From Minisyncoccota bacterium (GTDB lineage Bacteria; Patescibacteriota; Minisyncoccia; JAHIHE01; JAGLIN01), in the NCBI GenBank assembly GCA_028690055.1, contig JAQVBZ010000003.1, positions 7,779 through 71,778 of the forward strand: DNA of 64,000 bases, written 5' to 3'. The notes beneath the pieces are model-generated. The model ran no database searches. It saw only the letters and a list, made by a program, of their open reading frames with translations, and was not told where the DNA came from. Positions within the stretch are counted from its first letter, which is position 1, and each line of letters starts with the position of its first letter. Positions 25,815 through 26,721 of the stretch are shown here, one piece after another. The translations under genes were made by a program, and so were the position numbers.

Positions 25815-25839
25815 TTTGGTTGGTTATTCTTATTAATAT

Positions 25840-25868
25840 TTGACAACTTGATAGGTTAAATGTATATT
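25840..25868 (+). promoter_or_regulatory. Sigma-70-like promoter (TTGACA-N17-TATATT) upstream of ORF 25900-26322
   Basis: Near-consensus -35 TTGACA at 25840-25845, a 17-nt spacer, and -10 TATATT at 25863-25868. Confidence 0.4.
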
Positions 25869-25899
25869 CTATATTAACATAACAAAAAAAGATTCAGAG

Positions 25900-26322
25900 G
25901 TGATAAGAGTGGAAGAAACGATGAAAGAGATATACTGTTATGAATCCATACAGAATGAAAAGGGAGAATTTAACAGTTCTTTCACGGGTCAGCTTCCTGA
26001 TTTCATAGAAGAAAAATACCCAATAAGAAAGTTTGAGGAACAAGTAGAAAAGTTTACTGTGGTAATACACCATTCTGAGGGGCAAACCGCAGTCGATTTG
26101 CTGAGATGCCGCGTAGACAAATTGACTATCTTCGGCAATCAGATGATAATGGCTTACCGGAATGAAGGTCTACAGTGTTATAAGATCTTTCAGAGATACC
26201 TCCTGCACGGACGACAAGCTGATATAACTATCGGACATGTCCACGAGTTTATCCTGATGGATAACCTGCTCTTCATACGGGAGATAACCAAATCGACCGC
26301 TGATGCCAAATATGTAGATTGA
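25900..26322 (+). CDS. Hypothetical protein inserted between pheS and pheT
   Basis: 140 aa on the opposite strand to pheST. The likely real start is ATG at 25921, preceded by GGAAG. No recognisable domain. Confidence 0.4.
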   Translation: MIRVEETMKEIYCYESIQNEKGEFNSSFTGQLPDFIEEKYPIRKFEEQVEKFTVVIHHSEGQTAVDLLRCRVDKLTIFGNQMIMAYRNEGLQCYKIFQRYLLHGRQADITIGHVHEFILMDNLLFIREITKSTADAKYVD

Positions 26323-26419
26323 ACAAAAACAGAATGGTGAGAAAAAACCACAAAAAACATTTTTTCAAACAGAAGGTTGATCTTTTAAATTTTAACTTTC
26401 TTTTTTTGTTTTCAAAAAA

Positions 26420-26635
26420 CTAAAACTGCTCCAAAAATCTCAAATCATTTCCGTAAAATAACCTCAAATCATTCACCCCGGTCTTGATCATCGCGATACG
26501 CTCGAGTCCCACGCCGAAAGCGAAACGACAAGAAGCCGGAGCGGGTCTCCAGACCCGGTCCACACCGTTTGAAGATTCATAGAGCAGGCTATAAAAGATA
26601 ATTCCATCATTTCTTCTTCGCCCGATAGTATAGCT
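26420..26635 (-). pseudogene. Displaced or duplicated 3'-end fragment of pheS
   Basis: The open frame reads ...[35 protein letters not shown]. Its last 34 codons are identical in protein to the real PheS C-terminus but differ at about 10 synonymous positions. The copy sits 302 bp from the real stop. Confidence 0.55.
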
Positions 26636-26684
26636 TTAACTTGGAATCAAATAGTTACGGAACTGGTCTGGAGACCGGTTCCGG
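26536..26684. repeat. 150-bp element with 26-bp imperfect terminal inverted repeats
   Basis: TIR-L is CCGGAGCGGGTCTCCAGACCCGGTCC (26536-26561). TIR-R is GGAACTGGTCTGGAGACCGGTTCCGG (26659-26684). Each TIR is itself a small palindrome. Confidence 0.55.
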
Positions 26685-26721
26685 CATCGATCATTCCCGT
26701 ATAAATCAAATTTTCAAAAAA

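Follow-up and report, generated by a model that had tools for sequence, protein, structure and literature searches.

Why should a second, undamaged copy of the end of pheS stand between pheS and pheT, two essential genes that are normally co-transcribed? The question is raised by a 64,000-nucleotide stretch of contig JAQVBZ010000003.1 from a Minisyncoccota bacterium, a member of the Patescibacteria or candidate phyla radiation (the whole of this stretch is called the window here), in which the genes for the alpha and beta subunits of phenylalanyl-tRNA synthetase (PheRS) are both intact and are separated by 907 bp (25815-26721). A first-pass annotation of the window had put them about 900 bp apart and had explained the interval as what remains of an element that integrates into the pheS 3' end. 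Read from pheS, the interval holds 11 nt of 3' flank, a 186-nt non-coding piece, a second pheS tail, a hairpin, an open reading frame (ORF) of the opposite strand called ORF140, and a promoter match. The explanation favoured here, to which we give a probability of about 0.6, is recombination within a hypervariable spacer: the locus would be a scar left when alleles diverged by ~10% met in an exchange anchored in pheS homology and completed by one illegitimate join. The L-numbers used below designate loci of relatives, or other contigs, compared with the window.

The duplication is a 116-nt direct repeat, 91% identical between its copies, that takes in the final 34 codons of pheS, their stop and the next 11 nt. 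Copy A is the working end of pheS; copy B is the displaced one, and it carries no damage. Their protein ends of 34 residues are identical, while 11 of the 102 coding positions differ, every one of them synonymously (10 third-codon positions plus one TTG/CTC leucine pair), for a nucleotide divergence of 10.5% between tail A and tail B. Counted over 20.8 synonymous sites (S) and 81.2 non-synonymous sites (N), the proportion of synonymous differences, pS, is 0.53 and the non-synonymous divergence, dN, is 0; substitutions falling at random would yield 11 synonymous changes out of 11 with a chance of ~2e-7. The differences are confined to the first 78 nt of the repeat, its final 38 nt being the same in both copies, and in all relatives no part of the tail is better conserved than these 38 nt. 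The first-pass annotation had described about 10 differences, all synonymous, and had taken the copy for a functional gene end from a different lineage. Exact realignment bears out both statements, with 11 differences for its 10 and none of them non-synonymous: a dN of 0 beside a pS of 0.53 argues that the displaced tail was once functional elsewhere and is no fresh tandem duplication. Tail B evolved under purifying selection as the working pheS end of another lineage or allele, and the synonymous-only differences would be the pre-existing divergence of two working alleles. A diversity-generating retroelement was considered as a source of the mismatches and rejected, as they are T/C, A/C, G/A, G/C, T/G and C/T (not adenine-specific) and all synonymous; no reverse transcriptase domain is found among the window ORFs scanned.

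Two co-occurring strains joined into one assembly chimera would be another source of two alleles at one locus. The data are metagenome-assembled, and several short contigs (L094-L096) do end in or near the repeat. Such a chimera is nevertheless scarcely credible: the arrangement is unchanged in at least nine independent contigs from several samples, assemblers and archives (L078-L082, L091-L093, L095, L096), and L078-L081 and L091-L093 span it fully. Recurring in so many independent contigs, the structure is real, no artefact of assembly, and fixed in the species.

The amount of DNA to be explained is smaller than the 907 bp would suggest, as can be seen at sites that lack the insertion. In L084, L085 and L086 the unduplicated pheS stop is followed by 11 nt, a hairpin (AAAAAAAG(G)AAAGT...AACTTTCC) and an antisense ORF. 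These uninterrupted loci have, in the same place as ORF140, genes of its family (ORF138/142) that are 66-70% identical to it, and so has L083. The ORF140 homologue at the same place in L002 is 38% identical, and in L001 the antisense ORF is only remotely homologous (hhalign probability 87%, E = 4e-6). The hairpin AAAGAAAGTTAA...TTAACTTTC follows pheS in L083-L086 and in L002. Because uninterrupted L084-L086, and also L002, carry content of the ORF140 type, the gene, its promoter match and the hairpin are ancestral in the spacer. The first-pass annotation had located the promoter and the opposite-strand 140-aa orphan ORF correctly, and had counted both as part of the insertion; their presence at insertion-free sites in L084-L086 and L002 contradicts that second statement. 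ORF140 is thus an ancestral occupant of the spacer that lies outside the insertion, and the new DNA amounts to only ~302 bp, namely one tail copy and the 186-nt piece.

The 186-nt piece, which contains a small inverted-repeat element, can likewise be found where nothing is duplicated. An orthologous element occurs in L098, L099 and L102, cluster mates of the window by PheS (pheS 82% identical to that of the window at the nucleotide level), at the identical point, 11 nt after the stop of an unduplicated pheS. Their spacer of 252 nt consists mainly of this element and contains neither ORF140 nor a tail copy. Two types of spacer can be set side by side: H1 (L098, L099, L102), with pheS, 11 nt, the inverted-repeat element, a short flank and pheT, and H2 (L084-L086), with pheS, 11 nt, the AT-rich hairpin, an antisense ORF140-family gene with its promoter, and pheT. 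Tail A is flanked in the way of H1 and of L003 (GAAAA followed by TTTGATTTATACGGGAAT...), and tail B in the way of H2 (GAAAA followed by CAAAAAAAGAAAGTT...). Copy B passes without a break into the hairpin and ORF140, its downstream flank being that of the uninterrupted relatives. Within the insert the element carries flanks of its own, ~25 nt towards pheS and ~8 nt away from it. (The spacer of L003, otherwise an unrelated non-coding one of 430 nt, begins with the same ~25 nt.) The window is H1 until ~8 nt past the element and is there joined to H2 from pheS codon F308, with ...CTCCGGCTTCTTGTCG on one side of the junction and TTTCGCTTTCGG on the other. It is a colinear join of H1 and H2, and both parental arrangements are found in relatives.

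A short series of events would produce this arrangement. The versions of the spacer are all bounded by the well-conserved 3' end of pheS and 5' end of pheT. DNA of an H1-type relative, diverged by ~10%, would have entered a chromosome of type H2 by a single homologous exchange, within the pheS tail or upstream of it, together with a single illegitimate join. This join may have been made directly, by homology-facilitated illegitimate recombination (HFIR), or a re-circularised fragment may have integrated by a single crossover. On either route pheS would have stayed intact, now ending in tail A, and tail B of the recipient would have come to lie, silent, 302 bp downstream. As tail B is undamaged, the join should be recent relative to the divergence of the alleles. 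What we infer from comparing sequences is which way the DNA moved, how the illegitimate join was made, and the roles given below to promoter and terminator.

Imports from alleles of about this divergence can be recognised in other contigs of the species. L081 is identical to the window over 24900-26883 and ~11% diverged from 26884 to ~27900, while L080 has diverged tracts, up to 19%, in 23400-24700 (the 3' half of pheT) and on the gyrB side. These kilobase tracts are set in otherwise 99-100% identical DNA and look like recent homologous imports from diverged relatives. The 10.5% divergence of the tails matches the ~11% of the 1-kb pheS tract of L081, a tract which suggests that homologous import from alleles diverged by ~10% is ongoing at pheS. 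The most divergent part of the comparison with L081 is the interval between pheS and the NIF3-family gene (27748-27900), with 74 differences in 27800-27899 as well as an indel; a spurious ORF in this interval resembles a translated hairpin repeat (SPWRHSERSGCEVKNP).

The same imports lend something to a different history, in which the tail was duplicated locally around the element, by slippage or unequal exchange, and a diverged pheS import later overwrote copy A. Imports of ~1 kb at ~11% divergence do occur in the pheS of this species, and the diverged tract of L081 begins at 26884, only ~60 nt outside the repeat. Had tail and element simply been duplicated in tandem, however, two elements would be left, and one is present, so that the second copy would have to be lost precisely enough to restore the ancestral junction (GAAAA followed by CAAAAAAAG). 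At least three events would be needed where the favoured exchange needs one, and we regard this history as improbable.

The element itself was described by the first-pass annotation as 150 bp long with inverted termini of 26 bp. It is indeed there, at a size of ~160-186 nt and with arms of 30 nt (83% complementary) inside the 186-nt insert. By chance 0.1 occurrences of the arm core GGTCTCCAGACC would be expected in the window, which has it at this place alone; the arm pattern is GCCGGANCNGGTCTCCAGACC, and the 64-kb window has one copy of the element. The 186-nt piece folds as a long hairpin (z-score -3.9). When metagenome contigs are searched for the arm consensus, a paralogue turns up at L089 1764-1931, intergenic and unrelated to pheS, in which both arms are conserved and the interior can be aligned only in part, so that across metagenomes the element is known from two distinct loci. 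The other two of the three metagenome matches to the arm pattern (L087 and L088) were set aside as chance matches, as was a match of a single arm to a viral contig of 65% GC. The window, L098 and L089 have all kept the terminal helix, one pair of which is compensatory. Direct reading reveals no target-site duplication at the arms in the window, L098 or L089. Rfam has no match for the insert (E <= 1, 25000-27500), the sole exception in the searched region being a chance small nucleolar RNA match inside pheT, and an RNA family search of the whole window finds only five tRNAs.

An autonomous partner for the element was sought in the window and none found. The only transposase remnant in the window is IS30-like (58159-59128, + strand), and its ends are unrelated to the inverted-repeat ends, which removed it as a candidate. 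The remnant consists of two adjoining ORFs of 155 and 162 aa, probably a frameshifted insertion sequence; the first has the HTH_38, HTH_23 and HTH_32 domains typical of IS30-type transposases, and the second has no Pfam match and shows IS30-like motifs by eye. The 186-nt piece seems to behave as a small palindromic repeat or as something like a miniature inverted-repeat transposable element (MITE). Like MITEs and small palindromic repeats it is non-coding, bears terminal inverted repeats of 23-30 nt that three homologues preserve around a poorly conserved interior, and occupies at least two places in genomes; it differs from MITEs in having no target-site duplication, no autonomous partner in the window and no evidence of multiple copies within one genome. 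The MITE-type origin that the first-pass annotation had offered for the whole interval suits this piece, whereas ORF140 and the promoter form no part of the insertion.

An element whose terminal inverted repeats are conserved, and which is present at two or more loci, might be thought to have caused the duplication by inserting at the pheS tail, with aberrant repair or template switching then copying the tail. We rate this as very unlikely. The copies would have begun identical, and an outcome of 11 synonymous differences out of 11 would then be hard to reach (P < 1e-3 even with only five changes in the silent copy). In L098 and L102 the element is at the same site without a duplication, and the target-site duplication that an insertion might leave is not visible.

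Whatever joined H1 to H2, the spacer in which they met is hypervariable. In more distant relatives pheS and pheT are mostly 2-40 nt apart; in the pheS neighbours L001, L002, L003, L004 and L006 the gaps are 530-810 bp. L003 (7026-7560) and L084 are ~97% identical in pheS and pheT, and their spacers share nothing. L097 (3679-4761) and L100 (1069-1756) have flanking genes 96-97% identical and spacers wholly unrelated. Homology between the members of such a pair stops 10-18 nt past the pheS stop and returns 7-14 nt before the pheT ATG. Roughly a dozen different contents are found in the spacers of close relatives, which makes the spacer look like a recombination hot spot. Among them are the ORF140 family, three unrelated antisense orphans (L006, L083, L097), the inverted-repeat element alone, a minimal spacer of 90 nt (L005) and a sense-strand gene for a Cys-rich membrane-anchored protein (L004 2200-2925 and L100 1126-1737, both + strand). 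The Cys-rich proteins of L004 and L100 are 28% identical (E = 6e-9), and the pheS genes of the two lineages fall into separate sub-clades. Short hairpin-like repeats are common in these genomes (L089 1560-1765 and 2040-2105; L003 about 7440-7460). One of them, AACGGGAT(T)CCGGATATTT...GAATGACA, is found both in L089 and in the spacer of L003 (19 nt at 89%), and L089 has a further internal repeat, GTCTGTTGTTTTTTG.

Two of these spacers contain remnants comparable to tail B. The order in L083 is pheS, hairpin, an unrelated antisense ORF121, promoter, a fragment resembling the start of pheT, a decayed pheS tail, ORF138 and pheT; the stacked region is on the reverse strand (about 1540-1730 in pheS-sense coordinates), and the decayed tail with its stop and hairpin matches over 61-77 nt at 95%, its protein being only 45% identical. 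A protein-level scan of all the loci compared, with matches in 97, finds second tails only in the window species and in L083. L097 has, at 4258-4335, a pheT-start remnant and a 68-nt pheS-tail remnant between the unit of its ORF160 and a second unit, the tail remnant being detectable only at the nucleotide level. The break points in L083 and L097 differ from those of the window, and the stacking is independent. Boundaries that vary in this way, together with fragments of pheT, fit arbitrary illegitimate joins and do not fit the core of an attachment (att) site.

This last point bears on the interpretation put forward by the first-pass annotation, in which the two tails are attL and attR. In its full form it supposes that an attP containing a pheS 3' end integrated and supplied tail A, and that the element was mostly deleted afterwards or is a miniature one mobilised in trans. 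Phage 21 and e14 integrate into the 3' end of E. coli icd in this manner, supplying a replacement end, and the window resembles them in having a duplicated gene 3' end whose copies differ without harm to the protein. Direct repeats that have diverged only at synonymous sites are in line with such prophages, and the 38 identical nucleotides with which both copies end could be the crossover core. Yet apart from that putative core every defining feature is lacking. There are only 186 non-coding nucleotides between the repeats, hence no cargo and no integrase, and a Pfam scan of 35 window ORFs finds no integrase, recombinase or resolvase domain. The insert has no match in phage or plasmid collections, ORF140 has none in the phage collection, and ORF140 is in any case not cargo. 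The intervening element occurs at the same spot without duplication in L098, L099 and L102, and neither these orthologues nor the L089 paralogue carry a pheS tail. The analogous scars of L083 and L097, with other boundaries and with pheT 5' fragments, do not show the fixed boundaries across lineages that are expected of the icd type. Site-specific integration is therefore an unlikely account of the locus.

The reading of the locus as a scar of homologous exchange and illegitimate joining has its own weak points. The identical last 38 nt of the tails can be read as a site-specific core as well. No donor with a near-identical allele of the tail-A type and its flank was found, and the illegitimate junction is not directly readable; a possible microhomology, TCGCTTT, is shared with the post-element flank of L098, where the flank is 82% identical and aligns poorly. 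Short distance matrices (for the tails, the pheS body and the pheT head) place neither tail clearly with H1 or with H2, and GC content at third codon positions gives no signal on the origin of tail A or B, so that an assignment of the two tails to donor and recipient was tried and dropped. The L083 and L097 remnants are short and partly ambiguous between a pheT-start and a pheS-tail origin.

A broader interpretation of the spacer can be offered tentatively. In this Paceibacterota-like clade the spacer could be a dedicated cassette hot spot, in which small orphan genes are swapped, and at times stacked, between strains 96-97% identical in the flanks, the ends of the essential genes serving as anchors; we think this possible rather than probable. 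Such a spacer may amount to an integron-like array without an integrase, of whose workings the displaced tail in the window may be one footprint. Most of the orphans appear to be antisense genes with a strong (predicted) promoter of their own, and one type is the sense-strand Cys-rich membrane protein. They might be strain-specific immunity, defence or surface genes.

ORF140 offers few clues of its own. Neither Pfam nor PHROG has a match for it, only three matches come out of a profile search against 1.8 billion representative proteins, and its AlphaFold2 model is unusable (predicted local distance difference test score, pLDDT, 36). The gene is a true orphan restricted to its lineage. The promoter match (11 of 12 positions) points at ORF140 and away from pheT, and direct reading finds a similar TTGACA box 5' of the antisense ORFs in L002, L084 and L097; we infer that it drives ORF140. 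The AT-rich hairpin is presumed to be a terminator between the convergent pheS and ORF140. It was not called by the terminator scan because it has too few G-C pairs. The 85 nt that separate the pheT ATG from ORF140 (25815-25899) hold no obvious pheT promoter. A block just upstream of pheT, TGTCAAATATTAAT, is common to the window, L002, L084 and L097, and includes the -35 box of the antisense promoter.

Table 1. Coordinates of the features of the pheS-pheT locus, in positions of the window.
Feature	Position	Strand	Remarks
pheT (PheRS beta subunit, 789 aa), intact	23445-25814	-	Pfam tRNA_bind, B3_4, B5, tRNA_synthFbeta, FDX-ACB
Sigma-70-like promoter match TTGACA-17-TATATT, facing ORF140	25840-25868	+	
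ORF140, antisense to pheS and pheT	25900-26322	+	conserved start probably ATG at 25921
AT-rich hairpin (agaaggtt ... aactttct), then + strand T-run	26371-26412		direct reading
Copy B, displaced pheS tail	26409-26524	-	34 codons 26423-26524, stop 26420-22, 11 nt 3' flank
Non-coding insert, small inverted-repeat (MITE-like) element	26525-26710		186 nt
Inverted-repeat arm nearer tail B	26532-26561		
Inverted-repeat arm nearer pheS stop	26659-26688		
Copy A, working pheS tail	26711-26826	-	11 nt 3' flank, stop 26722-24, last 34 codons
pheS (PheRS alpha subunit, 341 aa), intact	26722-27747	-	Pfam Phe_tRNA-synt_N, tRNA-synt_2d

As a structural variant the scar is small and producible by known recombination routes; it calls for no new class of mobile element and leaves pheS unaffected. 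Its value would be that of a clean natural example of homeologous recombination in an uncultivated bacterium of reduced genome, and of a footprint that can be dated, a silent gene end that still bears the synonymous signature of another lineage. The scar is mechanistically ordinary, and the hypervariable, orphan-bearing pheS-pheT spacer is the more interesting by-product of the analysis. In this clade the space between two essential, normally co-transcribed genes turns over fast, which prompts two questions, one about the expression of pheT across an antisense gene and one about the role of the orphan genes.

Two known routes are the nearest mechanistic precedents for the favoured exchange. 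In HFIR, foreign DNA is joined at one end by homology and at the other illegitimately (de Vries & Wackernagel 2002 and Prudhomme et al. 2002, both cited after PMC5361080). In a test in E. coli most recombinants proved to be single crossovers of a re-circularised, partly degraded fragment, HFIR being rarer (Amarir-Bouhram et al. 2011, PMC3240628), and the single crossovers duplicated 109-950 bp of the homologous segment (PMC3240628). The window shares with these products the anchoring of one end by homology, here that of the pheS 3' end, the illegitimate join at the other, and foreign sequence trapped beside a conserved gene; its 116-bp duplication falls within the 109-950 bp range and would fit either route. 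It differs in that the case is read from a natural sequence only, and its donor, uptake route and junction microhomology are putative. The "foreign" DNA of the window would also be the homeologous allele of a close relative, and for that reason the duplicated segment still looks functional.

HFIR has also been put forward as the mechanism behind a second precedent, the arrays of displaced C-terminal ends at Rhs loci, contact-dependent growth inhibition (CDI) loci and the effector-immunity loci of type VI secretion systems (T6SS) (Jackson et al. 2009; Kirchberger et al. 2017, PMC5361080). In these arrays, as in the window, a new 3' end and a module stand behind a constant 5' part, and the old end is kept downstream as an orphan. 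Repeated events build the arrays up, to which the stacked units in L083 and L097 may be compared. The difference lies in what varies. The gene involved here is a housekeeping gene and no polymorphic toxin, and it is the cargo of the spacer that changes from strain to strain while the gene end does not: both tails of pheS encode the same 34 residues, so that, unlike the Rhs, CDI and T6SS arrays, the locus diversifies no protein.

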